Source: an uncultured Acidobacteriota bacterium | Lineage (GTDB): Bacteria; Acidobacteriota; Polarisedimenticolia; J045 | Reading direction: 5' to 3' | Length of the DNA stretch: 64,000 nucleotides | NCBI GenBank assembly: GCA_963702425.1 | Contig: CAVPCQ010000038.1 | Location: forward strand, 4,992 to 68,991 | Shown: one piece after another, positions 22,095-52,814 of the stretch | Position numbering within the stretch: the first letter of the stretch is position 1 | Layout: every line of letters begins with the position of its first letter | Position numbers and translations under genes: made by a program | The notes under the pieces: model-generated | Database searches by the model: none | Told to the model about the DNA's origin: nothing | The model's input: the letters and a program-made list of their open reading frames with translations, nothing else

Positions 22095-22120
22095 GTAGGG
22101 GCCGGCCTCCGTGCCGGCCC
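22095..22120. repeat. REP-like hairpin element, single copy (variant CTCCGT loop)
   Basis: GTAGGGGCCGGCCTCCGTGCCGGCCC has the stem GGCCGGC/GCCGGCC. It belongs to the same family as the elements at 35685-35798 and 44607-44724. Confidence 0.7.
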
Positions 22121-39913: not shown

Positions 39914-41053
39914 TTACAGCTGCTCGCCGAGGCGCTGGGTGCAGTCGGGATAGTCGCAGCAGGTGTGACAGACGCGCTTGTAGGCGTTGAAGGAGAGCAG
40001 CTCGACGGTCGGCGTGAGGTGCTCGGGCTTCTCCGGTTCCTCGCGCAGCAGATCGGTGGAGAGGTACTTCTTGTTGTCGTCCGGGAAGACGGTCACCACG
40101 ACCGCGTCGGGGCCGAGCTGCTCCTGCACCTCGAGCGCGGCGACGAAGTTGGCGCCGGACGAGATCCCGACGGCCAGGCCCAGCTCTCGCGCCAGCTTCT
40201 GGGCCATCAGGATCGCGTCACCGTCGCAGACGTCGACGACCGGATCGAGCGCGTCGAGCCGGACGATCTCCGGGATGAACTCGTCGGAGATCCCCTGGAT
40301 CCGGTGCTGGCCGACCTTGCGGCCGGTCCGCAGCGTGGGCGAGCTGGCCGGCTCCATCGGGTGGATCCTGATCGCGGGGCGCTGCTGCTTCAGGTAGGTG
40401 CCGACGCCCATGATCGTCCCGCCGGTACCGACGCCGGCGACGAAGGCGTCGGGGGTGACGCCGTTGGCGCGAAGCTGCCACCAGATCTCGGGCGCCGTGG
40501 CGGTCGCGTGGGCCTCGCAGTTGTGCTCGTTGGCGAACTGCCGCGGGAGGAAGCATCCCCCGTCCGAGGCCAGCTCCTCGGCCATCCGGATGCTGCCGAG
40601 AAAGCCCCCTTCTTCACGCGTCACCGGGCGGATCGCGGCGCCGAGGCTGCGGATCAGCTCGACCCGCTCGCGGCTCATCCAGTCGGGCATGAAGATCGTC
40701 ACCGGGTGGCCGAGCGCGCGCCCGATCGCGGCGAAGGAGATGCCGGTGTTGCCGGAGGTGGCCTCGACGATCCGCTCGCCGGGCGCGAGGCAGCCGTCGG
40801 CGTAGGCCCGCCGCAGGATGTGAAGCGCCATCCGGTCTTTGATGCTGCCGGTCATGTTGAGCTGCTCGGCCTTGGCGAAGATCCGCCGCGTCCGGCCGCG
40901 GAAGCGGAGTGCGATCTCGAGAAGCGGGGTGTTCCCGACCAGGTGGCCGATCGCCTGCAGGCGCCGCGTGGGCGGGTCGGCAGCGGGGAGGCCGGCCGGA
41001 GGTGGCGGCGGGAACGGGGAGAGGGTCCGTCGGGGTGGCGGTTGCGGGTTCAC
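39914..41053 (-). CDS. cysteine synthase / PLP-dependent beta-replacement enzyme (CysK/CysM/CBS family) with Cys-rich C-terminal tail; start uncertain
   Basis: Motifs seen: GNTPLL, PLP-lysine context [41 protein letters not shown]. The extra tail reads ..[28 protein letters not shown] 41053 is my choice of start; the track uses TTG 41191. Confidence 0.75.
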
Positions 41054-41200
41054 GGTGCGGGGAGGATAGCGCACCGGGCCGCCGATGCAGCGGAAGCGGG
41101 TATCGACGGGGCCTACCGAGTCGCGGCCGCCGGCCCGGTCGTCGCCGCGCCGCGCTTCTCCTGGTGGCAGGTCACGTCGCGGCAGGGCCAAGGCCCCCCG

Positions 41201-43090
41201 CTAGCGCCTCCGCCACCCGCCGCCCCCCGGCAGGACCGCGTCCCGTCCCGGCCGGCGCGGCTCCCAGGGCGCGATCCACGGCGAGAGCGGCAGCCGGTCC
41301 TCCGCCGCCTCCAGCTCCTCCGCCAGCCCGGCCGAGCCGGCCACGACCGGCGCCCACTCCTCGCCGCGGCGCTTGCCGGCGATCTCGTCCAGCTCGCGGT
41401 GGGCGAGGTCGCGGATCTCCGGCCGCAGCCCCTGGGCGGCGATCTCCTCGGTGAAGGCCCGGCGCCCCTCGACGAGGTCGGCCACGAAGGCGGCGATCTG
41501 CTCGCTCGAGTAGAAGTTCTCGGCGCGGTAGGGCGACAGGTCGGTCCCCTCCGAGCGGACGACCTCCTCGGTGTTGAGCCGACCCTTGAGGTACTCGTTG
41601 GTCCCGCGCAGGTCGCCGCGCTGCAGCGCAGCCATCAGGTCGATCGGTACGCGCGTCACCTTGCGGACCAGCTTCTTCGCGCCGGTCACCTTGTCGGTCT
41701 CGATGATCTCGCCGACGCCACCGGTGTTGTACTGGAAGAAGTGGACCTTGCCCGGGTGACGGTTCACCAGCTCCATCACGATCTCGTGGAACGCGTTGAC
41801 CTTGCGCCCCTGCTGGCCGACGATGAAGTCGTCCATGCCGACGATCCGGACGCTCTCCCCGGCCTTTTCCGGCACCGTCGCGAAGGAGTGCGTCGACTCG
41901 CCCCACAGGTAGGCCAGCACCCCCTGCTGCGGCGTCAGCCGCTGCGCGAAGGGCATGATCGTGGCGCGGCGCGTGATGAACGAGAAGACGATCCCGTCGA
42001 GCTGGTCGAGCGGCGCAACATTGATCGAGTCGTGGCAGATCGAGACGAACTTGCGGCCGCGCTGGACCACCAGCCGGCGCCGGTCCAGGACGCCGCGGCT
42101 GTTCTCGCCCAGCCGCTCGTCGAGGAAGCTCGCACGGCCCTTGTAATCGACCATCGTGTTCTCGAGCAGCGTGCTCTTATGGGCCAGCGCGTGGTACATC
42201 GCCTCCTGCAGCTTGATGTCGACATCGGTCTTGACGTAGAAGCCCTGCTCGGTGCCGTAGGACGAGCCGTCGCGCCGCAGCCAGACGATGTCGTCCTGCG
42301 CGACCCAGGTCCCCTCGCCCTGGTCGGGGTCGAGCCCGAGCTGGTGGCAGGACCAGGTCGACTTGCCGGTGGCCGTCAGGCCGAACATGAAAACGCCGAA
42401 GGTCTTGAGCTTGCCGGCCTTCGCGTCGCGCGCGCGGACGACCTTCGTCCCGGCGTGCAGGCCCAGCATCCCGCGCTCGTCGGCGCGGTACATTCCCTGG
42501 CGCAGGAACCCCTTCTTGCACTCGCCGGTGTAGTCCGAGCCCATCGCGATGTTGATGTCGTGCTCGGGGAGCGAAAGGATCTGCATCCGGACCGGGTGCT
42601 CTTCCGGGAGGTCGATCATGATGAACTCCGGCCCGGGCCGGCCCGGCCGGACGTCGTTCATCGTGCAGCCCCACATGTAGGCCAGGCGCGCGTTCTTGGG
42701 GTCGGCGACCGAGACGTAGAGGTTGCAGATCGGGTTGAACTCGGGGTTGTCCCCCATCTGCCGCCGGACGTGGACGAACGGCAGCGTCCGGATCAGCTGC
42801 AGCACCTTGTGCAGTTGGTCGGGCGAGCGCTCGGCCAGCTGGAGCTGGAGCTTGCTGGCCCGCGGCAGCCAGACCCCGGAGCTGCCGAGGAAGAGCGTCC
42901 GTGCCGCCATCCGCGAGGAGATCGCCGAGTACCAGACGTGCGAGCCGTCGGCGGTCCGCCGGGCGAAGGGGAGGGCCATCCGCCGCAGCTGGCGCATCGA
43001 GACGTGCCGGATGTTCGGGCCGTCGAGGCTGCTCCTCAGGTTGTCGGCGAATCGCCTGTAGACATCGGGATCGTACGGGCCGCTTGCCAT
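41201..43090 (-). CDS. phosphoenolpyruvate carboxykinase (ATP)-like protein, divergent, with ~90-aa C-terminal extension
   Basis: 629 aa. GSDYTGECKKGFL matches the YxGExKKG motif. The kinase-1a P-loop reads FGLTATGKST (canonical GLSGTGKTT). Also seen: ..AQDDIVW..GFYVKT.., LLENTMVD. The C-terminal tail is Arg/Glu/Pro-rich. Confidence 0.7.
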   Translation of the reverse strand: MASGPYDPDVYRRFADNLRSSLDGPNIRHVSMRQLRRMALPFARRTADGSHVWYSAISSRMAARTLFLGSSGVWLPRASKLQLQLAERSPDQLHKVLQLIRTLPFVHVRRQMGDNPEFNPICNLYVSVADPKNARLAYMWGCTMNDVRPGRPGPEFIMIDLPEEHPVRMQILSLPEHDINIAMGSDYTGECKKGFLRQGMYRADERGMLGLHAGTKVVRARDAKAGKLKTFGVFMFGLTATGKSTWSCHQLGLDPDQGEGTWVAQDDIVWLRRDGSSYGTEQGFYVKTDVDIKLQEAMYHALAHKSTLLENTMVDYKGRASFLDERLGENSRGVLDRRRLVVQRGRKFVSICHDSINVAPLDQLDGIVFSFITRRATIMPFAQRLTPQQGVLAYLWGESTHSFATVPEKAGESVRIVGMDDFIVGQQGRKVNAFHEIVMELVNRHPGKVHFFQYNTGGVGEIIETDKVTGAKKLVRKVTRVPIDLMAALQRGDLRGTNEYLKGRLNTEEVVRSEGTDLSPYRAENFYSSEQIAAFVADLVEGRRAFTEEIAAQGLRPEIRDLAHRELDEIAGKRRGEEWAPVVAGSAGLAEELEAAEDRLPLSPWIAPWEPRRPGRDAVLPGGGGWRRR

Positions 43091-43170
43091 GCAAGGACCT
43101 CTCGGGACAGCGGGCGGGAATCGGATGTTAGTCGGTCGGGAGCGCCGAGGGCAAGCGAAGCCGGGCCCGG

Positions 43171-43199
43171 TTGTAGTCCCCCGCCGATTGTCCTATGGT
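43171..43199 (+). promoter_or_regulatory. candidate sigma-70-type promoter for the flotillin gene
   Basis: TTGTAG (43171-43176), a 17-nt spacer, then TATGGT (43194-43199). It lies 36 nt upstream of ATG 43235, whose RBS is GGAGGAG. Confidence 0.3.
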
Positions 43200-43234
43200 G
43201 GTTCCCCCTACCCAGCACGGACTCGGAGGAGTCC

Positions 43235-44593
43235 ATGCCCCTCACCTGGATCCTGGTCGGCGCGGCCGGCGTCGTCATCGCCACGGCCGCCGCGGCCGCT
43301 TTCTATCGCTACAGGAACTACCGGAAGGCGGGCCCGAACCAGGTGCTCGTCATCTCCGGGCGTCCGTCGACCCTGACGGACGCCGAGGGACGGACCCGAA
43401 CGGTCGGCTACCGGCTCCAGATCGGCGGCGGCACCTTCGTGCGGCCGCTGGCGGAGACGGTGGACGTCCTGCCGCTCGAGGTCTTCTCGATCTCGGTGAA
43501 GGCGCCGGACGTCATCACCTCGCAGGGGGTGCTGATCTCGGCCGACGCCCAGGCGCAGGTCAAGGTCTCCTCCGAGGAGGGGGACCTGCACCGCGCGGTC
43601 GAGAACTTCCTGTCCCGCGGCGCGTCCGGCATCACCTACGTCGCGCAGGAGGTCCTGGAAGGGCACCTGCGCTCGGTGCTGGGCGGGATGACGGTCGAGG
43701 AGATCTACACCGGGCGCGAGGAGGTCGCGGAGCGCCTGCGCCGGCAGGCCGATCCGGACTTCCGGCGGCTGGGGCTGGAGCTGGTCTCGTTCTCGCTCAA
43801 GGACGTGGCCGACGCGCAGGGCTACATCGCCGCGATCGGCGCGCGCCGCCTCGCGGAGATCAAGCGCGACGCGGCGATCGTCCAGGCCGAGACCGAGCGC
43901 GACGCGGCGATCAACGCCGCCGAGGCCCGCAAGGAAGGGGACGTGGCGCGGCTGCGCGCCGAGGCCGAGCTGGCCGAGGCGACGCGCGACTTCGAGATGC
44001 GGCGGGCCGACTACCAGGCCGACGTCAACACGAAGCGGGCGCACGCGGACCTGGCCTACGACCTCGAGCGCGCGAAGGGCGAGCTGGTCCTGCGGCAGGA
44101 GGAGTACCGCGTCCGGCTGACCGAGAAGGAGCTGGCGGCCAAGGTCGAGCAGGCCGAGGTCGTGCGCCGCGAGCAGGAGCTGGAGGCGAACGTCAAGCGG
44201 CCGGCCGAGGCGATGCAGTTCCAGGCCCGGCTGGAGGCGGAGACCGAGGCCTACCGGAAGGAGCTGGAGGCCAAGGGGCGCGCCGCCGGCGTGCGGCTGG
44301 AGGGGGCCTCGCAGGCCGAGGCGATCGCGGCGAAGGGGAAGGCGGAAGCCGACGCGATGCGTCAGAAGGCCGAGTCGTGGAAGCAGTACAACGACGCCGC
44401 GCTGGCCGAGATGATCGTGAAGGTGCTGCCCGAGCTGGCGAAGAACATCGCCGAGCCGCTCTCCAAGGTGGAGAAGATCATCATGGTCGGCGACGACGCC
44501 GGCGTGCCGAAGATCACCGGGCAGGTGGCCCAGGTCGTCGCGCAGCTGCCGACCGTCGTCGAGGCGCTCACCGGCCTCAAGCTCGCGACCTGA
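43235..44593 (+). CDS. flotillin-family SPFH/Band-7 protein
   Basis: 452 aa. An N-terminal TM helix is followed by the SPFH domain (..VLVISGR..FVRPLAETVDVLPLEVF..V.A.D..T.QGV.I...A.AQVKV..). A long Ala/Glu/Arg coiled coil follows, then the C-terminal ..PELAKNIAEPLSKVEKIIMV. Confidence 0.85.
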   Translation: MPLTWILVGAAGVVIATAAAAAFYRYRNYRKAGPNQVLVISGRPSTLTDAEGRTRTVGYRLQIGGGTFVRPLAETVDVLPLEVFSISVKAPDVITSQGVLISADAQAQVKVSSEEGDLHRAVENFLSRGASGITYVAQEVLEGHLRSVLGGMTVEEIYTGREEVAERLRRQADPDFRRLGLELVSFSLKDVADAQGYIAAIGARRLAEIKRDAAIVQAETERDAAINAAEARKEGDVARLRAEAELAEATRDFEMRRADYQADVNTKRAHADLAYDLERAKGELVLRQEEYRVRLTEKELAAKVEQAEVVRREQELEANVKRPAEAMQFQARLEAETEAYRKELEAKGRAAGVRLEGASQAEAIAAKGKAEADAMRQKAESWKQYNDAALAEMIVKVLPELAKNIAEPLSKVEKIIMVGDDAGVPKITGQVAQVVAQLPTVVEALTGLKLAT

Positions 44594-44606
44594 TCAAAAA
44601 GAAGAC

Positions 44607-44724
44607 GTAGGGGCCGGCCTCTGTGCCGGCCCGAGGAATGCCGGCCTCTGTGCCGGCCCGAGGAATGCCGGCCTCTGTGCCGGCCCGAAACCTCGTGCGG
44701 GCCGGCACAGAGGCCGGCCCCTAC
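44607..44724. repeat. REP-like hairpin array: 27-bp unit x3 plus one inverted copy (candidate terminator/REP cluster)
   Basis: GCCGGCCTCTGTGCCGGCCCGAGGAAT occurs at 44613-44639 and 44640-44666, with a truncated third copy from 44667. GTAGGGGCCGGCCTCTGTGCCGGCCC (44607-44632) is the exact reverse complement of 44699-44724. The array starts 14 nt after the flotillin stop. Confidence 0.85.
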
Positions 44725-44765
44725 CGGCGGCCGAGCGATACGGGGGCCGCCCGCGTGGATGACCG

Positions 44766-47093
44766 ATGCTGACGGAACGCGTCAACCGGATTGCCCTGTC
44801 GCCGACGCTCAAGCTCTCCCAGCGCGCGGCGAAGATGAAGGCCCAGGGGGTCGACGTCGTCGACTTCACGATCGGCGAGCCCGACTTCCCGTCGCCCGAG
44901 GCGGCGAAGCAGGCGGCCAAGGCCGCGCTCGACGCCAACTTCACCAAGTACGTCCACCCCGACGGGATCCTCGAGCTGCGCCAGGCGATCGGCGAGAAGC
45001 TGCGCCGCGACAACGGGCTGTCCTACGAGACCGACGAGATCATCGTCAGCCCCGGGGCCAAGAACTCGATCTACAACGTCGTCCTGTCGCTGTTCGGGCC
45101 GGGGGACGACGTGCTGATTCCGGCCCCGTTCTGGGTCTCCTACCCGGACCAGGTCGTGCTCTCCGGCGCCAACCCGGTCCTGCTCCGCACCCGCGAGCAG
45201 GAGGGCTTCAAGCTGATGCCCTCCGACCTCGCCGCGGCGGTGACCCCCAACACCAAGGGGATCATCCTCAACTACCCGAGCAACCCGACCGGGGCGGTCT
45301 ACTCCCGGGCCGAGCTGGCCGCGCTGGCGGAGATCTGCGTCAAGGAAGGGATCTGGATCATCAGCGACGAGATCTACGAGAAGCTGATCTACGGCGGCCA
45401 GCGCTTCGTCTCGATCGCCTCGATCGACGAGCGCGTCAAGAAGATCACGATCGTCATCAACGGCTTCTCCAAGGCCTTCTCGATGACCGGCTGGCGGCTG
45501 GGCTACGCCGCCGGGCCGAAGGAAGTGATCGCCGCCTGCTCGAAGATCCAGTCGCACACCACCTCGGGCGCGACCTCCTTCGCCCAGAAGGGGGCGCTCG
45601 AGGCGCTGCGCAGCTCGCAGATGGACGTCGAGCGGATGCGCCAGGAGTTCGAGCGGCGCAAGAACGCGGTGCTCTACCGGCTGCGCGCGATCCCCGGGGT
45701 CTCGGTCGCCTCGCCCGACGGCGCGTTCTACGCCTTCCCGAACGTCTCCCGCTACCTCGACAAGGAGTTCGGCGGCGCCCCGGTGCGCAACACCTACGGG
45801 CTGGCCTACTACCTGCTCAAGGAGGCCCGCGTCGCGGTCGTCCCGGGCGAGGCGTTCGGCAGCCCGGAGCACATCCGGATCTCGTTCGCGACCTCGATGG
45901 ACCGGATCGAGGAGGGGATGAAGCGGCTCGCCGCGGGCCTGGCGCGGCTCGAGTCGCCGCGCCGCCTGCGCCCGCGCCAGCTCAACAACGTGCTGACGAA
46001 GGTCTCGCGCTACGCCGAGGTGCGCGCGGTGCCGTCGATCGACGAGCGCAACACGCTGCTGGCCGAGGCCGAGCGGCACCTGCCGGCGGACTCCTACTTC
46101 GAGTGGAACGCGGCGATCGGCGGCGTGGTGGTCCAGCTGCGCACCAACTCGCCGCACCTGGCCGACTTCTTCCAGGAGAACTTCTACCCCGCGCCGCTCG
46201 AGGGGGACATCGCGCCCCACGCGGTGATCTACGCGGTCAAGGACATGCCGGGCCGCGAGCCGTCGGCGCTCCTGAGCCTGCCGACCGCGACCGCCTTCGC
46301 CTTCAACACCGCCTTCTACGGCCAGGTCCGGACGCTGGCGCTGGTCCTGGCCGCGGACGCCGCGACGCGCATCAGCGGCGCGCTGTTCGTCCACGCCGCG
46401 GCGATCGACCGCGGCGGCCGCGGCGCGCTGCTGTGGGGGATGCCGGGATCGGGCCGTACCGGGCTGCTGGCCGAGCTGCTGCGCGAGGACGGCGTCAAGC
46501 TGGTCGGCAACGACGCGCTGCTGGTCCGGATGTCGGGCGCCGACGCGCTGGTCGACCTGGTCGAGCGCAAGCTCTACCTCAAGGCCAAGTGGGGCCAGCA
46601 CTTCCCCGAGATCGAGAAGCTGCTGGACCGGGCCAAGCTGGAGAACCTGGTCACGACCCACGACCAGTGCACGGTCGAGTACTGCCCGATCGCGCAGGAG
46701 TGCACGCTCGACCGCGGCGCGGCGGCGTGCCTGGCGGCGTCGGGGAGCGGCCGGATCCTGCTCGACCCGGCCTGGCTCGGCGGCGGACGGCAGCACGTGC
46801 GCCGCACCGTCGGGCGGCTCGCGGTGCTGCTGGCCAAGGACCCCGCGCTGCCGTCGGTGCAGGAGCTGTCGCCGCGCGACGCGGCGCGCTACCTGTCGGG
46901 CGGCCAGCTTCCCGGCGCGCGCGGCCCGGCCATCCCGTACCTGAACCCGCACCTGGTCGGTGTCGACGCCGCGCGCAACGACGCGCTGCGCGCGCAGTAC
47001 GAGCGGCTCTTCGCCTGCACGCGGGCGGTCGTCGTCAACAGCGGGGTGGGCTCGCGCGAGGCGATCGCGCGGCGGGTGCTCGAGCTGCTCTGA
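44766..47093 (+). CDS. fusion protein: class I aspartate/aromatic aminotransferase (N-terminal ~395 aa) + HprK/PEPCK-fold kinase-like domain (C-terminal ~375 aa)
   Basis: 775 aa. Aminotransferase motifs: DFTIGEPDF, YPSNPTGAVY, INGFSKAFSMTGWRLGY (PLP Lys), IRISFA. The C-terminal part reads ..FVHAAAIDRGGRGALLWGMPGSGRTGLLAELLREDGVKLVGNDALLV.. (P-loop-like at 46437-46463, with Arg where GxxGxGK has Lys). This resembles the HPr kinase core. Confidence 0.8.
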   Translation: MLTERVNRIALSPTLKLSQRAAKMKAQGVDVVDFTIGEPDFPSPEAAKQAAKAALDANFTKYVHPDGILELRQAIGEKLRRDNGLSYETDEIIVSPGAKNSIYNVVLSLFGPGDDVLIPAPFWVSYPDQVVLSGANPVLLRTREQEGFKLMPSDLAAAVTPNTKGIILNYPSNPTGAVYSRAELAALAEICVKEGIWIISDEIYEKLIYGGQRFVSIASIDERVKKITIVINGFSKAFSMTGWRLGYAAGPKEVIAACSKIQSHTTSGATSFAQKGALEALRSSQMDVERMRQEFERRKNAVLYRLRAIPGVSVASPDGAFYAFPNVSRYLDKEFGGAPVRNTYGLAYYLLKEARVAVVPGEAFGSPEHIRISFATSMDRIEEGMKRLAAGLARLESPRRLRPRQLNNVLTKVSRYAEVRAVPSIDERNTLLAEAERHLPADSYFEWNAAIGGVVVQLRTNSPHLADFFQENFYPAPLEGDIAPHAVIYAVKDMPGREPSALLSLPTATAFAFNTAFYGQVRTLALVLAADAATRISGALFVHAAAIDRGGRGALLWGMPGSGRTGLLAELLREDGVKLVGNDALLVRMSGADALVDLVERKLYLKAKWGQHFPEIEKLLDRAKLENLVTTHDQCTVEYCPIAQECTLDRGAAACLAASGSGRILLDPAWLGGGRQHVRRTVGRLAVLLAKDPALPSVQELSPRDAARYLSGGQLPGARGPAIPYLNPHLVGVDAARNDALRAQYERLFACTRAVVVNSGVGSREAIARRVLELL

Positions 47094-47124
47094 CGGGTTG
47101 ACGGTTGCTGTCCCCGCTACGCCG

Positions 47125-48039
47125 TCAGTCGACAGGGATCCTGCGGCTGGAAGCCGGCCGCGGGTCCCGGAAGGTCCTCGGCTCCGCGCCGTTGCTGGTC
47201 GCCTTCGCCAGCCGGCGGCGCAGGCGTACGATCGCTTCCTCTTCGATCTGCCGGGCCCGCTCGCGCGAGAGCCCGAGCATCTCGCCCAGCTCCTGGAACG
47301 TCATCGCCGGGCGGCCGTCGAGGCCGAAGCGGTTCAGGATGATGACCCGCTGGCGCTCGGAGAGCAGCGCGACCTCGCGTCGCACCAGCGTCCGCACGCG
47401 CAGCCGGTCGACCTCGAGCTCGGGCGACGCGGAACGCGGGCAGGCCAGCCGGTCGAGCACCGTCAGGCCGCCTTCGCTCGTGGCGTCCTGGTCGAGCGAG
47501 AGCACGCGCGGCTCCCCGCCGCTGCGGTCCACCACGGTCGCCTCGGTCAGCCCGGCCCGCAGCGCCAGCTCCTCGACCGTCGGAGCGCGTCCCAGCTCCG
47601 AGCGCATCGTCTCCTCGATCAGCCGCAGGTCGCGTCGCCGCTCGCGCGCGTAGCGCGTCAGGCGCACGGAGCGCCCCTCGCGGCAGAGGTAATCGAGGAT
47701 CCGCTTTCTGATCCACCACGCGGCGTAGGTCAGGAACTTGACCTCGTGCGACGGGTCGTAACGATGCGCCGCCTCGACGAGGCCCATGTTCCCCTCGGCG
47801 AGCAGGTCCTCGAACGGGATCTCGCGGGACTGGAACTCGCACGCGACCTGGACCACGAAGAACAGGTGCGGTTCGACGAGCTCGCGCACCCGGGCGCGGT
47901 CGATCGGGCCCTCGTGCGGGGTGAGCATCGGCAGCGAGGCAGGGCGCTCCTCGCGTTGCACGCGCCGCGCATCCTCGAGGTAGTGCGACACGAGTCGTCG
48001 CGAAGACCGCCGCCCTGCCGACGGAGTGCCGAAGCTCAA
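47125..48039 (-). CDS. RNA polymerase sigma factor, sigma-70 family (regions 1.2, 2, 3 and 4 present); start uncertain
   Basis: Region 2: DLLAEGNMGLVEAAHRYDPSHEVKFLTYAAWWIRKRI. Region 4: MTFQELGEMLGLSRERARQIEEEAIVRLRR. TTG 48039 has GGGAGGGGG 3 nt upstream. The alternatives are TTG 48102 (track) and GTG 47991. Confidence 0.75.
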   Translation of the reverse strand: MSFGTPSAGRRSSRRLVSHYLEDARRVQREERPASLPMLTPHEGPIDRARVRELVEPHLFFVVQVACEFQSREIPFEDLLAEGNMGLVEAAHRYDPSHEVKFLTYAAWWIRKRILDYLCREGRSVRLTRYARERRRDLRLIEETMRSELGRAPTVEELALRAGLTEATVVDRSGGEPRVLSLDQDATSEGGLTVLDRLACPRSASPELEVDRLRVRTLVRREVALLSERQRVIILNRFGLDGRPAMTFQELGEMLGLSRERARQIEEEAIVRLRRRLAKATSNGAEPRTFRDPRPASSRRIPVD

Positions 48040-48132
48040 GAGCCCCCTCCCGTTCCGCTTCGAAGGAGAACCGACCCCTCGAAGGGCTTCCCGTCCTGCC
48101 AACCCCGCGGCAGTCTACTCGCGCCGGGGGTG

Positions 48133-49023
48133 TCAGGGAAGGGGAGAACGGGTGACGCCGGTGTGAGAATCGTCGTCGATGCGGCGTGCGGCGACGGCGA
48201 CCGAACAACCGCTCGCTGCCCCGATCGGAAGAAAAGTCAGTCGCGTCGGCCGAGGCAGTAAGCCGTGCCCGTGGGCCTCTTGCCAGAGGGATCTCCAGCC
48301 CTCGAGCTGGCGCCGACCGAGGCGGTAGACCGCGCCGTTCAGGGCTGTCTGGGCGCATTCGAGCGCGATGCCGCGGGCCGGACCCAGCGCGGCGATCGAG
48401 GCCAGGTCGCGGCGGGCTCGCGTGCGCGCCCCGTGCATTAACGCGTATGTTCGCCGGTCGATCGCGCCGGGCCGCGCGGCCCAGGCCCACCAGACCATCG
48501 GCATCCCGGTCAGCTCGGTCCAGGCCGCCCCGAGGTTCAGCGCGCGGGGATCGCGCCGGCCGCCGGGGGCCTCCCAGCGCAGCGCGTCGTCGCCGGCGAC
48601 GAGCACCGCGCCGTGCGCGACCAGCGCCGCCTCCAGCGGACCCGTCCAGGGTTCGATCTCCACGGCGCGGCCGCCGGCGGCGAAGAGCGTCGCCGCAACC
48701 AGCTCCGCCGCGTGGCCCGGCGCCGTCGAGACGATTCTCCGGACCTCCTCGAGCGGCACGCGCAGGTGCAGGATCGCGTCCGAGGGTCCTTCGCTCGCGA
48801 CCGCCAGGCCCGGCACGACCCGGACCTCGTCCGCGCGCCGCGCGATCTCGGAAGCCGGGAGCAGCGCCAGGTCGAGCGTCCCCTCGTCGAGGCGGCGCGC
48901 CAGCTCGAGCGGCGGCGCGATGGACAGCTCGAACGGCCCGGCGGCGGCGGGCGCGTCGAGCCCGCAGATCAGCGGCGCGGCGACGAGGTCGCCCGGCGCT
49001 CCCGCACGCCAGCGCACCGGCAT
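48133..49023 (-). CDS. mqnA: chorismate dehydratase MqnA-like (futalosine-pathway menaquinone biosynthesis), PBP-like fold
   Basis: 296 aa. The pattern ..P..LARRLDEGTLDLALLPASE.., ..LVAGDDALR.., LNLGAAWTELTGMPMVWWAWAAR matches the MqnA layout (..DLG..W...TGLP.V.A.W..R). The assignment is by recollection of family motifs only. Confidence 0.55.
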   Translation of the reverse strand: MPVRWRAGAPGDLVAAPLICGLDAPAAAGPFELSIAPPLELARRLDEGTLDLALLPASEIARRADEVRVVPGLAVASEGPSDAILHLRVPLEEVRRIVSTAPGHAAELVAATLFAAGGRAVEIEPWTGPLEAALVAHGAVLVAGDDALRWEAPGGRRDPRALNLGAAWTELTGMPMVWWAWAARPGAIDRRTYALMHGARTRARRDLASIAALGPARGIALECAQTALNGAVYRLGRRQLEGWRSLWQEAHGHGLLPRPTRLTFLPIGAASGCSVAVAARRIDDDSHTGVTRSPLP

Positions 49024-49036
49024 CGTGCGCCCGGCC

Positions 49037-49918
49037 TCAGGCGGGGTGGAGCGTGAACCGGGTGATCTCCGGCCGTACGCCGAAGCGCACGCGCCGGTTG
49101 TAGCCGAGGCCGCGGTTCGTGTAGACGAGGTGGCCGCCGGTGTTCACCAGGCCGCTCATGAAGCGCCTGTCCTCGCACGGAACGTAGGGCGCGCCGACGA
49201 GCGGCAGGCTGATCTGCCCGCCGTGGGTGTGCCCGAACAGCGCCAGCTCGAAGCGCTGGTGCTGGATCGCCGCGAAGGCGTCGGGGTTGTGGCCCAGCAC
49301 GATCCGCGCGCGGCCGGCGTCGGCGTTCCCCGGCAGGCTGCGGAACGCGGCCTCCGGATCGAACGGCTTCTTCCAGAATTCGTCGAGGCCCAGCAGCTCG
49401 ATCTCGCCCGCCCCGCCGCGCGGCGCGACGACCCGCCCGCGATCGACCAGCAGCTCGATCCCGACGCGCGCGAGCTGCTCGCCCAGCATCTGGTCGCCGT
49501 GCGGCAGTCCCGCTGCGATCTGGCGGTACCAGTGGTCGTAGTCGTGGTTCCCCATCGACGCGAAGACGGGCGCGACCTGGGCCAGCGGCGCCAACTCGTC
49601 GGCGACCAGGCGGAAGCAGTCGGTGTCGCCGGAGATGAAGTCGCCGGTGAGGACGACCAGTTCGGGTTGGAGCGCCAGCACGCGCTCGACCGCTTCGCGG
49701 ACAAAGGGTCCGCTGACGATGTCGGAGCGGTGGATGTCGGAGAGCTGCACGACCGACAGGCCGGAGAGCCCGGCCGGCAGGCCCGGGATCGCGAGCGCGT
49801 GCTGCCAGACCTGGATCCAGGTCGGCTCGACCGCCACGGCGTAGACCGCCGTGCTGCTGGTCACCAGGCCCGCCGGGACCGCGGCCGCGGCCATCTTCAG
49901 GAAATCTCTGCGGTGCAT
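49037..49918 (-). CDS. Tat-exported metallophosphoesterase (YkuE/calcineurin-like family)
   Basis: Twin-arginine signal: MHRRDFLKMAAAAV. Motifs seen: QLSDIHRSD, VLTGDFISGD, MGNHDYD, LFGHTHGGQ. Confidence 0.8.
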   Translation of the reverse strand: MHRRDFLKMAAAAVPAGLVTSSTAVYAVAVEPTWIQVWQHALAIPGLPAGLSGLSVVQLSDIHRSDIVSGPFVREAVERVLALQPELVVLTGDFISGDTDCFRLVADELAPLAQVAPVFASMGNHDYDHWYRQIAAGLPHGDQMLGEQLARVGIELLVDRGRVVAPRGGAGEIELLGLDEFWKKPFDPEAAFRSLPGNADAGRARIVLGHNPDAFAAIQHQRFELALFGHTHGGQISLPLVGAPYVPCEDRRFMSGLVNTGGHLVYTNRGLGYNRRVRFGVRPEITRFTLHPA

Positions 49919-50065
49919 CGGGCTCCGGCTCGACTGGGAAGTGTAGGGGACGGCTTCGAGCCGGCTCGCAGCGCGGGAGCTCGTCCGAACGGTGAGTCTA
50001 GGCCTTCGCCAGGGATGCGGCGAGCTTGCCCCGGGTGACGGTTGCCTGTACTTCCTGCATCACGA

Positions 50066-52814
50066 ATGACGCAGCGCGCGTTATCTGTAGCCCTTACCGG
50101 TTTGTTCCTGTTCGCGGGACTCCGCGGAGGGACGGCGTGTGCCGCTGTCCGAGCGTCCGGGCCCTCGGGGGCTCCGGCAGCCGGGCCCTCGGCGGCGGAG
50201 GAATCGGTCCGGGCCTGCGCGCGGCTCGAAGGGCTGATCACTCCGGCGACCGCGGCCGGGCGCCTCGCGGCGGTGCCGGCTGCCGAGCGCCGGGCGCGGC
50301 TGATCGCGGTCCTCTCCGCCGACGCAGTCGCGCACGCGGCGCGGGCCACCGCGCAGTTGCGCGCCGCCGGCGGGCGCGACGTCCGGCTGCTCTGGGGCGC
50401 CGGCGTGATCTGCGCGAGCGCGCCGCGCGCCGTGTGGGACGAGGTCTCCCGGCTGGACGAGGTGGCCGCCGTCTTCGACGACCCGCCCCGGGACGAAGCC
50501 GAACTGCTCGACTTCCCGCCTGGCCCGAACGAGGCCGTCCCGCCCGAGGCGCCGCTCGTCGCGCTGCGCGTCCCCGAGGCCTGGCAGCGCGGCTACACCG
50601 GGAGCGGGACGGTCGTCGCGCTGATGGACACCGGCGTCGACCGGACCCACCCCGACCTGGTCGGGCAGATCTGGGTCAACGCCGGCGAGGTCGCCGGCAA
50701 CGGCCTCGACGACGACGGCAACGGCTACGTCGACGATGTGAACGGCTACGACTTCGCCGACCGCGATCCCGACCCGTCCGACTCCGCCGGCCACGGCACG
50801 AACGCCGCCGGCCTGATCGTCGGCAACGGGAGCGCCGGCAAGCAGACCGGCGCCGCACCGGGTGCGAAGCTGATGGTGCTGCGCCGCGGCACGACGCAGG
50901 CGACGCTGTGGGAGGCGAGCCAGTACGCGATCGAGAACGGCGCCCACGTCCTGTCGCAGTCGGTGTCGTGGAAGTGGTCGTTCCTGCCGCGGCCCGACTA
51001 CTCCGCCTGGCGGCGCCAGGCCGAGACGGAGCTGGTAGCGGGCCTGGTGCACGTCAACAGCTCGGGCAACACGGGCGAGCAGCTCGGGACGGAGCCGATC
51101 CCCTACAACGTCGCTGCGCCGGCCAACTGTCCGCCCCCCTGGCTGGGTCCCGAGCAGACGCTCGTCGGTGGAGTGTCGTCCGTGCTGGGGATCGGCAACG
51201 TCGACGCGCGCACGCACGCGATCGTGCCGTCGAGCCCCTACGGTCCCGCGGAGTGGACCGACATCGTGGCCCGGCGCGACGCGACCTACCCCTGGCCGAT
51301 GCCGCCCGCGCACCAGGACTACCCGGCGTGGAGCGGCGCGATCGGTCTGCTGAAGCCCGACTTCGTCGCCCCCGGCGACAACTCGACCAGCACCGCGATG
51401 GGCGGCGGCTACGCGACCTTCGGGGGGACCTCGGCCGCGACGCCGCGCGTCGCCGGGATCCTGGCGCTGCTGCGCGAGGCGGTGCCGCGCGCCACGCCGG
51501 CCGAGCTGGCGCGCGCGCTCTTCACGAGCGCGGCGGACCTCGGTCCTGCCGGCCGCGACGCGCGCTACGGCGCCGGGATGCCGCAGGCCGACGCCGCGAT
51601 CGACGCCGCCGGGCCGCCGCTGTTCGTCGCAGCGGTGACGGTGCACGACGACGGCGCGCCGCGCGGCGACGGCGACGGCGGCGGGGACGCGGGGGAGATC
51701 GTGCGGCTCAACGTGACCGTCGAGAACGCGTCGGCCGGCGCGCTCGCCGGGATCGACCTCGTGCTGCGCGGCGGGACCGACGCGCTCGTGCGCGACGGCT
51801 ACGCGCGGCTGGCCTCGCTCGCCGCGCAGGCGACGGCGGTCGTCGACTTCACCGTGGAGTTCCCGGCGGGGAGCTGCGCGCGCGTTGCGGAGCTGGCGCT
51901 CGAGCTGCGGGAAGGGGGCCGCGCGCGGGTCGAGCCGCTGTTCGTGACGGTCGGGACCGAGACGCGGCAGGCGCTCTTCGCCGACGACGCCGAGCAGGAT
52001 CGCGGCTGGAGCGTTTCCGGCGGCGCGACCTCGGGGCAGTGGGTGCGGCAGGCGCCGGTCGGGACGACGAAGAGCGGCGCGCCGATGAACCCCGCCGCCG
52101 ATGCCAGCCCCGCTCCCGGCACGCTGGCCTGGGTCACCGGCAACGGCCCGACGGCGCCCGACGCCGCCGACGTCGACGGTGGCGCGACGACGCTGACCGC
52201 GCCACCCCGCGACGGCCGCGACTTCGCGCGCGTCGAGCTGCGCTACGCGCGGTGGTTCGCCTCGAACGACGCGGCGAGCGAGGACCGGCTGCTGGTCGAG
52301 GCGACCGGCGACGGGACGGCGTGGCGCGCGATCGAGGAGATCACCGCGCCCGCGGCGGCCTGGCGCGCACGCAGCATCGTGCTGTCCGACCTGCTGGCGC
52401 CCGGCGCGCGCACCGCGCTGCGCGTGACGGTCGAGGACGCGGGGGCGGACGACACGGTCGAAGGCGGGCTCGACGAGGTCCTGCTCGAGGGGATCGCGAT
52501 CGCCTGCACGGAGTTCGTGCCGCCGGTCGGGCCGACGCCGGACGAGGTCGGTGCGACGCTGCGCCTCGCGCCCGCGGCGGGCGGGCATCTGCTGCTGACG
52601 TGGGACCCGCCGTCGGCGACGGGGGGCGTCGATCCGCCGCGCGGGTATCGCGTGCGGCGGTCGGCCGTGGCGAGCGGCGGGTTCGCGGAGATCGGGCGGC
52701 CGCTGGCGGCGCGGTTCACGGAGGTCGACGGGGTGGCGGGGCGGCGGGCTGGTCGGGGGGCTCGTGCCGGGGTCGGCGGCGTTCTACCTGGTGGAGTCGG
52801 TGCGGTCGCGCTGA
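50066..52814 (+). pseudogene. secreted S8 subtilisin-family peptidase with long C-terminal region and terminal FN3-like module; +1 frame disruption within 52716-52757
   Basis: ATG 50066 with a signal peptide. Catalytic triad contexts: VALMDTGVD (Asp), SAGHGTNAAG (His), FGGTSAATPRVAG (Ser). The track frame (to 52966) degenerates after ..ARFTEVDG. The third frame reads ..GGLVPGSAAFYLVESVRSR* with TGA at 52812-52814. This is the same kind of ending as the M14 protein (..SSFYLVAAKN..). The shift lies in G-runs, including G6 at 52755-52760. Confidence 0.75.

Follow-up and report, generated by a model that had tools for sequence, protein, structure and literature searches.

Among described systems, aspartate aminotransferases of subgroup Ib (Phormidium 1j32, Thermus 1bkg/1bjw, Sinorhizobium 6f35/6f77 and the Arabidopsis aspartate/prephenate aminotransferase 5wmh) align from end to end with the N-terminal half of the protein analysed here (E=6e-106 to 1e-88), while ATP-dependent phosphoenolpyruvate carboxykinase (PEPCK; PckA, PF01293; 1ii2, 1aq2, 2pc9) shares its order of motifs with the C-terminal half, which we call domain X. 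A PEPCK fold is also found in NDUEG2, an accessory subunit of respiratory complex I in Euglena gracilis (8j9h; PMC10884005); unlike the protein described here, NDUEG2 is eukaryotic and mitochondrial, belongs to complex I, carries no fused aminotransferase and has no link to an active PEPCK paralogue. Archaeal proteins of 880-910 aa, recorded as "phosphoenolpyruvate carboxykinase" (Asgard, Bathyarchaeia, Altiarchaeota; P0063, P0199, P0248), carry the same X together with the same PEPCK-like family that neighbours our locus. In the full-text literature searched, we found no paper describing these archaeal proteins and no description of the aminotransferase-X fusion, of the X family or of a link between a flotillin, PEPCK and an aminotransferase.

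The aminotransferase-X fusion

The fusion gene (44766..47093, forward strand) is a single open reading frame with an ATG start in the window, the 64,000-nucleotide stretch of Acidobacteriota DNA that was analysed. Its 775-aa product joins a subgroup-Ib aspartate aminotransferase (aa 1-395; 44766..45950, forward strand) through a short linker to an in-frame domain of 380 aa (aa 396-775 plus stop; 45951..47093, forward strand), a shortened paralogue with the PEPCK fold, in which catalytic residues are altered. A related-locus genome scan was run with the fused-clade alignment of the fusion. In all 80 related loci, drawn from about ten phyla and assembled independently, the aminotransferase lies directly upstream of X in the same uninterrupted frame, and the separate-gene arrangement was seen in none of them. 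The aminotransferase half is full length in 76 of these loci and incomplete in the other four, where contig ends or indels of related assemblies interrupt it. Across the 80 loci the X half is 39-68% identical to the X of the window. Reference genomes hold at least 419 loci with the fusion, and the exact 775-aa protein is present in a public collection, in a 90% cluster with several further members of 775-776 aa (JGI, ENA). The fusion is genuine, neither a frameshift nor an assembly artefact, and its conservation is far beyond chance, which bears out the original prediction that an aminotransferase is here joined to a second domain.

That prediction had also taken residues 1-395 for a complete class I aminotransferase, and this holds. 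PF00155 spans aa 30-388 (E=8.5e-75, 252.6 bits against a Pfam cutoff of 19.7), the PLP lysine K236 (45471-45473, forward strand) stands in SKAFSMTGWR (aa 235-244), and the companion class I motifs NPTG, DEIY and SKxxxMTGWR are present. Of 81 fusion proteins, 79 keep the motif SKA[FY][SA]MTGWR and two read SKSY. The best solved relatives of this half are the aspartate aminotransferase 1j32 (E=6e-106), 6f35/6f77, 5wmh and Thermus 1bkg. The lysine in PGAKNS matches, in the alignment, that of GGKQS in 1j32, a lysine that recognises the distal carboxylate in Thermus aspartate aminotransferase. Unlike 1j32, the fusion protein carries a conserved insertion, Y.D.EF.G.PIRN.YGL, and unlike the subgroup as a whole it bears the C-terminal PEPCK-fold domain. 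The N-terminal half looks like a working enzyme of subgroup Ib (aspartate + 2-oxoglutarate <-> oxaloacetate + glutamate). The top NCBIfam models are likewise aspartate aminotransferases, at 398 bits against a cutoff of 550 and 396 against 617; since these equivalog-level cutoffs are missed, the substrate range could be aspartate only, or could also take in prephenate or others.

Fold and catalytic positions of domain X

The core of X, FVHAAAIDRGGRGALLWGMPGSGRTG...LVGNDALLV, is present in the open reading frame as it was originally quoted. The X family profile matches PEPCK 1ii2 across both lobes (PDB profile search, E=7.8e-6), and the closest full-length homologue family is that of the neighbouring PEPCK-like gene (hhalign probability 97%), so that the proposed placement of X in the HprK/PEPCK P-loop superfamily stands. 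The motifs follow the PEPCK order of Y-x-G-x-x-(K/R), H, P-loop, (D)D, E..Y, LEN, R..DP and NTG. The N-terminal lobe and the P-loop lobe of the PEPCK fold are both in place, while no PEPCK model is reached above its cutoff: PEPCK sequence models of Pfam and NCBIfam gave no match to the X of the window at E<=1, and standalone X relatives score 22-51 bits to NF006821 (cutoff 369), the sole model matched outside the P-loop. X and the neighbouring PEPCK-like gene go back to one divergent NF006821-type branch, and X is about 250 aa shorter than the product of that gene.

The original prediction had likened this core to HPr kinase/phosphorylase (HprK). A P-loop core of about 60 residues does resemble it, but nothing beyond that does, and the scores fall far below the curated cutoffs, both for HprK (PF07475, 12.1 against 33.3 bits; TIGR00679, 14.8 against 240) and for the HprK-related kinases A and B (TIGR04352, 27.8; TIGR04355, 26.9; both against 200). 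Unlike HprK, X carries motifs specific to PEPCK as well as an additional N-terminal lobe, and it lacks both the HprK N-terminal domain and the P-loop lysine of GxSGxGKS; nor is HprK its closest fold. The fold of X is that of PEPCK, not HprK, and membership of HprK is ruled out by this fold together with the sub-cutoff scores.

X nevertheless differs from PckA at several of the positions that form the catalytic constellation of PEPCK (Y207, K212, K213, H232, K254, T255, D268, D269 and R333 in E. coli PckA numbering), and the constellation as a whole is not present. The Walker-A or kinase-1a loop is degenerate, WGMPGSGRT (aa 557-565; 46434..46460, forward strand), where the PEPCK-like family has GLTATGKST, and R564 (46455-46457, forward strand) replaces the K254-equivalent lysine. 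The arginine in GSGRT had been predicted correctly, at coordinates (46437-46463) that were one codon off. Its conservation, which the prediction had proposed to examine, differs by clade: arginine is fixed in the Acidobacteriota-clade fusions (48/48), whereas elsewhere the position is mostly lysine (K 24, R 3, G 2, M 1; n=30), and a basic residue is kept in 75 of all 78 fusions. The equivalent of the Y207-x-G-E-x-K212 substrate loop is YGQVR (46317..46331, forward strand; hhalign mapping), in which the tyrosine is kept, glutamate has become glutamine and lysine has become arginine; across the 78 fusion proteins both Tyr and Arg are invariant and Gln occurs in 76. The K213 equivalent is serine or threonine in 71 of 78 and lysine in none (threonine in the window), the D268 equivalent is aspartate in just 4 of 78 (asparagine in the window), and the D269 equivalent is aspartate or glutamate in every one. 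The X of the window keeps the equivalents of Y207, H232, T255, D269 and R333, with conservation of H232, T255 and R333 being lost outside Acidobacteriota.

The domain is also truncated relative to PckA. Judged from the span that aligns, roughly 70-130 residues are missing at its start, and it terminates 12 residues past the NTG-type motif, so that the C-terminal nucleotide (adenine)-binding subdomain is absent (hhalign). With this subdomain lost and the phosphoryl-transfer residues replaced, X is most likely a non-catalytic pseudo-PEPCK. The predicted "kinase-like" function is thus probably wrong, given the replacement of K254 by arginine, the replaced K212, K213 and D268 equivalents and the missing subdomain; the regulatory or pseudo-kinase alternative that had been offered beside it fits better, although the domain is a pseudo-PEPCK.

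The catalytic residues of X are relaxed while its fold and other surfaces are under selection, the pattern of a pseudo-enzyme. X is still functional, because 44 of its positions reach 97% conservation or higher across phyla (78 fusions) and because its median identity to the window, 61.6%, compares with 69.4% for the aminotransferase. The conserved cleft-type motifs are Y..R, ERK, EN, R..DP and NPH. Between the LENV and GRxxLDP motifs lies an insertion, not found in PckA, of four cysteines (C635, C640, C646 and C655, spaced C-x4-C-x5-C-x8-C; 46668..46730, forward strand), of which C646 and C655 are invariant in the 78 fusions while C635 is conserved in 96% and C640 in 59%. The insertion, which is missing from several standalone members of the X family, possibly forms a metal-binding knuckle.

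Genomic partners and archaeal relatives

The tightest-linked partner of the fusion gene is one that the original prediction had missed, a flotillin-like SPFH/Band-7 gene (43235..44593, forward strand) encoding 452 aa with a hydrophobic N-terminus (PF01145, E=9.4e-28; PF15975 Flot, E=1.5e-5, just under cutoff). Of the 80 related loci, 72 have it immediately before the fusion gene in the same orientation, as do 28 of 31 distant-phylum loci. No terminator-like site was detected between the two genes, in a promoter/terminator scan that performed no better than on shuffled sequence, and searches of the spacers for riboswitches or other RNAs returned just sub-threshold miRNA-model matches, which came from a REP-like hairpin array. 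PADLOC gave no defence-system match for the flotillin-like, fusion or PEPCK-like protein. In distant phyla, conservation around the fusion extends to just three gene families. A PALP gene downstream of the PEPCK-like gene was considered as a further part of the module and rejected, there being no match to it in the 80 related loci, including a contig that is 93-97% identical (L004).

The divergent PEPCK-like gene (41201..43090, reverse strand; 629 aa; PF01293, E=3.2e-24; NF006821, 263.6 bits against a cutoff of 369) is transcribed divergently from the flotillin-like gene across a 144-bp spacer, and its product retains YTGECKKG, LHAG, GLTATGKST, QDD and NSR. Among 28 loci with full flanks, 23 have it no more than about 10 kb from the fusion gene and five have none that near; the linked loci include Gemmatimonadota, Planctomycetota, Ignavibacteria, Latescibacterota and Caldithrix, and in two loci (L079, L083) the gene follows directly downstream of the fusion on the same strand. 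Viewed from the PEPCK-like side, among 18 metagenome loci that extend 9 kb in either direction, a flotillin-like gene is found within 10 kb in 10 and X within the fetched stretch in 7. The PEPCK-like protein ends in a tail, SPWIAPWEPRRPGRD...GWRRR (41204..41284, reverse strand), that lies beyond an acidic low-complexity linker and is conserved among orthologues: a similar tail, for example ...[WY]EP[KR]xR[PL]PR...[WY]Rx[RWF], closes 31 of 35 orthologues across phyla, the exceptions being two divergent proteins (L005, L028) and two cut before the tail (L012, L044). The tail is a candidate docking peptide.

X is fused directly to the PEPCK-like enzyme in about 95 clusters of archaeal proteins. 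One of these, P0063, matches both proteins of the window: its X aligns with the window X at E=8e-28, and its PEPCK module is 38% identical to the PEPCK-like protein over 543 aa (E=1e-122). The archaeal architecture differs from ours in that X sits N-terminal to the PEPCK-like enzyme rather than C-terminal to an aminotransferase, lacks the cysteine insertion and the LENV segment, and is joined to a PEPCK module without the C-terminal tail, as seen in P0063. The archaeal X module is degenerate too, K-to-R P-loops included. Within the chains of 93 archaeal fusions, the PEPCK module is near-invariant (YYGE.KKG, LHAG, GLTATGKTT, QDD, NGR) whereas the X module has variable P-loops, among them independent GGRTT and TGRTT forms, and this within-chain contrast suggests that X has lost catalytic constraint. 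An AF2 model of the natural fusion P0063, built on a 93-sequence alignment, reached a pTM of 0.65, a value that shows neither a rigid contact between the domains nor their clear independence. In one Lokiarchaeota genome the X-PEPCK gene adjoins a canonical GTP-PEPCK, so that the PEPCK-like enzyme may be something other than a plain PEPCK.

Aminotransferase or flotillin neighbours were absent from the archaeal X-PEPCK contexts examined, and an SPFH neighbour was lacking in all five contexts examined of archaeal X-PEPCK or standalone X genes, which suggests that X predates its association with flotillin. Standalone X occurs in Omnitrophota in the gene order ndk-X-yicC-gmk, and two other standalone X genes showed no recurring neighbours. 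Many standalone X proteins retain GTGKS/T, DDW, K and H, and those with canonical motifs may be active enzymes.

Readings of domain X and their implications

Conservation of the fusion beside the flotillin-like gene, and usually near the PEPCK-like gene, suggests an undescribed enzyme assembly at the junction of aspartate, oxaloacetate and PEP. We favour, at about an even chance, the reading in which X, a non-catalytic paralogue with an adaptor or regulatory role, couples the transamination of aspartate to the PEPCK-like enzyme. X would be a partner module of that enzyme, fused to it in archaea and moved onto the aminotransferase in bacteria, where it would tether or allosterically couple the aminotransferase dimer to the PEPCK-like enzyme; unstable oxaloacetate could then be handed directly between transamination and a PEP-forming or PEP-consuming step, and the co-transcribed flotillin-like protein may position the assembly at the membrane. 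The putative partnership draws on the archaeal fusion clusters and on the synteny in 23 of 28 loci, and the relevance that had originally been ascribed to the upstream PEPCK-like gene gains from both, as it does from the hhalign homology. Counting against this adaptor role are the incomplete linkage from the PEPCK-like side (10/18 and 7/18), the five fusion loci of 28 with no PEPCK-like gene nearby, the many standalone X proteins that may be active and the Lokiarchaeota genome with a canonical GTP-PEPCK beside X-PEPCK. The tightest partner, moreover, is a flotillin-like gene for which channelling of oxaloacetate has no need.

The invariant polar and basic residues of X, with a basic P-loop residue in 75 of 78 fusions, could reflect real ligand binding or other chemistry rather than a purely structural role. 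An unlikely alternative is accordingly that X retains the PEPCK cleft as a sensor whose ligand would be oxaloacetate, PEP, a nucleotide or phosphate, the arginine taking over from lysine as anion binder, and tunes the aminotransferase without touching the PEPCK-like enzyme. The conserved cleft-type tyrosine, K212-equivalent arginine, ERK, EN and acidic D269 equivalent are consistent with such sensing, as are a constraint of 44 near-invariant positions, like that of many enzymes, and the shortness of the interdomain linker; yet it leaves both the archaeal clusters and the cross-phylum proximity of the PEPCK-like gene unexplained, and the R333 and H232 equivalents, which belong to the PEPCK substrate and metal site, vary outside Acidobacteriota.

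It is rather improbable that X serves mainly to dock onto the flotillin-like scaffold and so bring its aminotransferase to an SPFH cage or to microdomains of the membrane, with the PEPCK-like gene a looser, secondary companion. The constancy of the flotillin-like gene directly upstream, the lack of a detected terminator-like site between the two genes and the weaker PEPCK-like linkage in both directions all speak for this arrangement, but archaeal X-PEPCK and standalone X genes lack an SPFH neighbour, and the conserved tail suggests that the PEPCK-like protein also belongs to the assembly.

We consider it very unlikely that X works as a phosphotransferase of the HprK or PEPCK kind through an arginine P-loop, which would make the protein truly bifunctional, as the kinase claim implied. 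Weak P-loop matches to HprK and to the HprK-related kinase A and B models, the H232, T255, D269 and R333 equivalents kept in the window and the fully canonical motifs of many standalone relatives lend it some colour. Every HprK and PEPCK model, however, scores far under its curated cutoff, the fold is not that of HprK, four catalytic equivalents (K254, K212, K213, D268) are replaced, the catalytic positions vary by phylum while the fusion does not, and the adenine-binding subdomain is absent; moreover, exchange of the Walker-A lysine for arginine usually abolishes catalysis in P-loop enzymes. That an assembly, frameshift or gene-calling error merged two genes is next to impossible: many relatives' database entries are indeed fragments of 220-560 aa and the long-read contig L004 carries frame-breaking indels, but fragments reaching upstream all run into aminotransferase sequence, and the 80 in-frame loci and the identical public protein rule it out.

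X represents a widespread and unannotated family for which no Pfam or NCBIfam model reaches its cutoff and whose carriers are labelled merely "aminotransferase" or "PEPCK" in public records; the C-terminal half of the fusion should carry neither the label "HPr kinase" nor "kinase". The family offers what appears to be a clean natural case of a pseudo-enzyme paralogue that has changed partners, moving from the PEPCK-like enzyme to an aminotransferase, and the system makes channelling at the aspartate/oxaloacetate/PEP node directly testable. To our knowledge the client proteins of bacterial flotillins are poorly defined, and this locus ties one such flotillin to specific soluble metabolic enzymes. 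In its most ambitious form, which we regard as doubtful, the flotillin-like protein, the aminotransferase-pseudo-PEPCK fusion and the PEPCK-like enzyme would make up a membrane-scaffolded metabolon at the oxaloacetate node, in which X pairs with its PEPCK-like paralogue and the tail, X or both dock on the SPFH/flotillin assembly. If true, a bacterial flotillin would here for the first time be seen to be dedicated to the organisation of two central-carbon enzymes, in a system whose conservation would run from Acidobacteriota through Gemmatimonadota and Planctomycetota to candidate phyla of the FCB group, with X fused to the PEPCK-like enzyme as its archaeal precursor.

Distribution and authenticity of the aminotransferase fusion

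Long chance open reading frames are frequent in the window because of its G+C content of about 72%, and a spurious ORF of 1542 aa is also present. Despite this background, the ORF at 44766-47093 (+), which encodes the 775-aa protein AT-X (an aspartate aminotransferase, aa 1-395, joined to a domain X, aa 396-775), is real. When aa 396-775 were searched for homologues, the matches were mainly fragments, and each one extending upstream entered aminotransferase sequence directly. An exhaustive representative search yielded full-length fusions (781 and 785 aa) as well as one of 740 aa with an apparently frameshifted C-terminal third. A genome scan using one genome per species gave 419 confirmed AT-X loci; in all 80 examined in sequence, the aminotransferase lies directly upstream of X in the same frame, at full length in 76 and cut by contig ends or indels in the others. 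The identical 775-aa protein is present in a public collection, and its 90% cluster holds several more members of 775-776 aa, listed under JGI and ENA and named in their source records as aminotransferases only. With a single frame in 80/80 loci and the exact protein and its cluster members public, the possibility of an artefactual fusion, raised in the original prediction, was excluded. Besides Acidobacteriota/Thermoanaerobaculia, to which the window itself belongs, carriers include Aminicenantes, Eisenbacteria, Zhuqueibacterota, Latescibacterota, KSB1, Zixibacteria, Planctomycetota, Gemmatimonadota, Ignavibacteria, Calditrichaeota, and one Myxococcales MAG. The nearest public genome copy of window positions 41194-52805 (L004; CAWDCL010000004.1, a 3.27 Mb contig) is 93-97% identical in DNA with 99 gaps in 8.2 kb; small indels there disrupt both the AT-X ORF and that of the neighboring PEPCK-like protein, probably an assembly-error pattern, and breakage of this type explains truncated database entries (e.g., 661-aa and 252-aa cluster members).

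The assignment of the N-terminal half to the class I aminotransferases held, with a Pfam match (PF00155, aa 30-388, E=8.5e-75) and an alignment along its whole length with subgroup-Ib aspartate aminotransferases of solved structure (1j32 at E=6e-106; also 6f35/6f77, Thermus 1bkg, and 5wmh, the Asp/prephenate aminotransferase of Arabidopsis). The PLP-lysine motif (SKAFSMTGWR, aa 235-244) is kept across 81 fusion proteins, two of which carry a SKSY variant. Top NCBIfam models are aspartate aminotransferases, and this is the best reading of the sequence, with a substrate range that scores under the equivalog cutoffs do not fix. An insertion relative to 1j32 at about 45735-45800 (+) (aa about 324-345, Y.D.EF.G.PIRN.YGL.YYLLK), kept in a nine-sequence fused-clade alignment, might be a surface contacting X.

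Identity and fold of domain X

Domain X had been described as HprK/PEPCK-fold and kinase-like; the PEPCK fold was upheld by profile and structure comparison, but kinship with HPr kinase was ruled out. No Pfam or NCBIfam model reaches its cutoff over X, and single-sequence scans gave weak P-loop matches only, all far under cutoffs (HprK_rel_A 27.8 bits, HprK_rel_B 26.9, hpr-ser 14.8, PF07475 12.1). The motif series of the X-family alignment (YYGQxK/R-S, xHG, P-loop, (D)DW, ERxxY, LENV, (N)SRxxxDP, YNPYL, LNTG) follows the order of the ATP-PEPCK signature motifs, and the family profile best matched PEPCK 1ii2 (E=7.8e-6, profile positions 22-172, N-terminal lobe included), with HprK entries aligning to positions 135-197 only. 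A Foldseek search of the PDB with an AF2 model of X built from the family alignment (pLDDT 91.6, pTM 0.90) placed ATP-PEPCKs in all of the best 35 positions (E about 5e-18, TM about 0.70), then GTP-PEPCKs, and no HprK structure among the best 50. Profile-profile comparison with 35 PEPCK-like orthologues aligned X 68-368 with PEPCK-like 134-460 (probability 97%, E=1.2e-10); in standalone X proteins, the PEPCK model NF006821 was the sole match outside the P-loop. Motif order, the 1ii2 match, Foldseek, and the orthologue comparison together indicate, on profiles and a predicted structure, that X is a truncated paralogue from the divergent PEPCK branch to which the neighboring PEPCK-like gene also belongs. 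With its chain ending 12 residues past an NTG-type motif, X lacks the C-terminal nucleotide-binding subdomain, and nothing in it corresponds to the first 70-130 residues of the PEPCK-like protein in the hhalign mapping.

Between its LENV and GRxxLDP motifs, X carries a four-Cys insertion (C-x4-C-x5-C-x8-C; nt 46668-46730 (+), aa 635-655) that is possibly a zinc knuckle; across 78 fusions two of the four Cys are invariant and one is kept at 96%, and the insertion is missing from several standalone X members and from the archaeal X modules.

Catalytic residues and X-PEPCK fusions

Residues of X were mapped to PEPCK by hhalign and counted over 78 full-length fusions, with the numbering and residue roles of E. 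coli PckA. The window X has Y at Y207 and R at K212, both in 78/78, and T at K213 (S or T in 71/78, K in none). At H232 it has H, as in 48/48 Acidobacteriota, with R in 17/30 others; at T255, T, again in 48/48, with S, M, T, A, I, K, or F elsewhere; and at R333, R (48/48, and 17/30 others). N occupies D268 (D in just 4/78) and D occupies D269 (D in 72, E in 6). The predicted P-loop stretch is present (WGMPGSGRT, aa 557-565, nt 46434-46460), and its Lys-to-Arg change at K254 is a true substitution, with R in 48/48 Acidobacteriota and mostly K among the 30 others (K 24, R 3, G 2, M 1). As judged from these alignments, GSGRT is a genuine clade-fixed substitution, and the phosphoryl-transfer machinery of X overall is not conserved any more. 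Across fusions, X is strongly constrained: 44 of its positions are conserved at ≥97%, and its median identity to the window, 61.6%, compares with 69.4% for the aminotransferase.

The X family occurs in three architectures: standalone, AspAT-X in bacteria, and X-PEPCK. Standalone proteins span about 360-410 aa, and many carry canonical GTGKS/T, DDW, K, and H; members with intact motifs are possibly active. One such gene, whose GTGKST P-loop is intact, is flanked by ndk and yicC/gmk (L003 4325-7231, Omnitrophota MBI4354900.1), and no recurring neighbors were found for other standalone genes in the contexts examined. The X-PEPCK fusions (880-910 aa, about 95 clusters, from Asgard archaea, Bathyarchaeia, Altiarchaeota, and a few bacteria), all annotated "phosphoenolpyruvate carboxykinase," include a large uncharacterised archaeal family (P0063, P0199-P0293; loci L084-L086, L089-L091) whose N-terminal pseudo-PEPCK X module, about 330 aa long and unannotated, precedes a PEPCK-like module in which the catalytic motifs are intact. 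P0063 matches the window X at E=8e-28 and the window PEPCK-like protein at 38% identity over 543 aa (E=1e-122); AF2 of a natural X-PEPCK fusion gave pLDDT 88 and pTM 0.65, values that fit a fixed interface between the modules as well as its absence. In 93 fusions, the PEPCK module keeps YYGE.KKG, LHAG, GLTATGKTT, QDD, and NGR near-invariant, whereas the X module has Y...R, FLRG where the His motif would be, and diverse P-loops such as SGKST, GGRTT, TGRTT, SGINT, and ENDIAT. The clearest evidence for X being a catalytically relaxed partner module comes from this contrast within one chain, and GGRTT and TGRTT within archaeal modules show, at the sequence level, that Lys-to-Arg P-loops arose more than once. 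In a Lokiarchaeota genome (L091 3328-8682, GCA_011365055.1), the X-PEPCK gene adjoins an AsnC-type regulator and a canonical GTP-PEPCK (PF17297 + PF00821); from this adjacency, the PEPCK-like enzyme may catalyze a reaction other than, or opposite to, that of standard PEPCK.

Gene neighborhood and a proposed partner role

The PEPCK-like gene predicted upstream of AT-X on the opposite strand was confirmed at 41201-43090 (-) (PF01293, E=3.2e-24; NF006821, 263.6 bits against a cutoff of 369). It occurs within about 10 kb of AT-X in 23 of the 28 loci whose flanks extend at least 8 kb each way, typically 1.5-2 kb upstream and divergent, which defines a compact module (PEPCK-like <- -> flotillin-like, AT-X); L079 and L083 carry the PEPCK-like gene directly downstream on the same strand. 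Tighter than this linkage, and unmentioned in the original prediction, is the adjacency of a flotillin-like SPFH gene (window 43235-44593 (+), PF01145, E=9.4e-28), directly upstream of AT-X on the same strand in 72/80 loci across about ten phyla; of the eight loci without a match, six have <200 nt of upstream sequence, and L036 and L074 show none within 1.5-2.7 kb. Unbiased ORF clustering of 31 distant-phylum loci recovered AT-X, flotillin-like, and PEPCK-like proteins as the sole real conserved families (31, 28, and 14 loci). Viewed from the PEPCK-like side in metagenome contigs, the flotillin-like gene was nearby in 10/18 loci with 9 kb on both sides, so the PEPCK link is frequent and not obligate; AT-X follows the flotillin-like gene wherever the flank is long enough. 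None of the three proteins matched known defence systems in PADLOC. A PALP-family gene (cysteine synthase/CBS-like, 39914-41191 (-)), 9 nt past the PEPCK-like gene on the same strand, has no match in 80/80 related loci, the 93-97% identical L004 included, and was thus ruled out as a module member.

PEPCK-like proteins (orthologues in L005-L083) carry an acidic low-complexity linker and then a conserved extreme C-terminal tail (window 41204-41284 (-), SPWIAPWEPRRPGRD...GWRRR; consensus ...[WY]EP[KR]xR[PL]PR...[WY]Rx[RWF]), which is absent from P0063 and looks like a candidate short docking motif. The flotillin-to-AT-X spacer (44606-44724) holds three tandem 27-nt repeats and one inverted copy, giving a perfect 27-bp inverted repeat (44607-44633 / 44698-44724). 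The element recurs at 22101, 35732, and 35775, and its 18-mer core GCCGGCCTCTGTGCCGGC has 7 copies in the window vs 0.03 expected; by sequence it is a dispersed REP-like palindromic element, which accounts for spurious sub-threshold miRNA-model matches in Rfam.

In the best-supported reading, X would be a non-catalytic PEPCK paralogue, with ligand binding at most, that acts as partner module of the PEPCK-like enzyme. A precedent is Euglena NDUEG2, a PEPCK-fold complex I subunit with an incomplete C-terminal domain without ATP sites and undetectable PEPCK activity (PMC10884005). That X serves as an allosteric sensor domain seems unlikely, and as a flotillin-docking module, for which gene adjacency might speak, somewhat less likely still; an active enzyme using the Arg P-loop is the least likely of the three. 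The components are of known kinds (PEPCK fold, AspAT, pseudo-enzyme paralogues, SPFH scaffolds), and the full-text literature searched held no description of the AT-X fusion, the X family, or a flotillin/PEPCK/aminotransferase module; within that literature and Pfam/NCBIfam, the novelty lies in the combination and the family. As a partner module joined to the aminotransferase, X would couple Asp <-> oxaloacetate with oxaloacetate <-> PEP, in a scheme whose proposed parts are physical contact between X and the PEPCK-like protein, oxaloacetate channelling, and a role for the flotillin.
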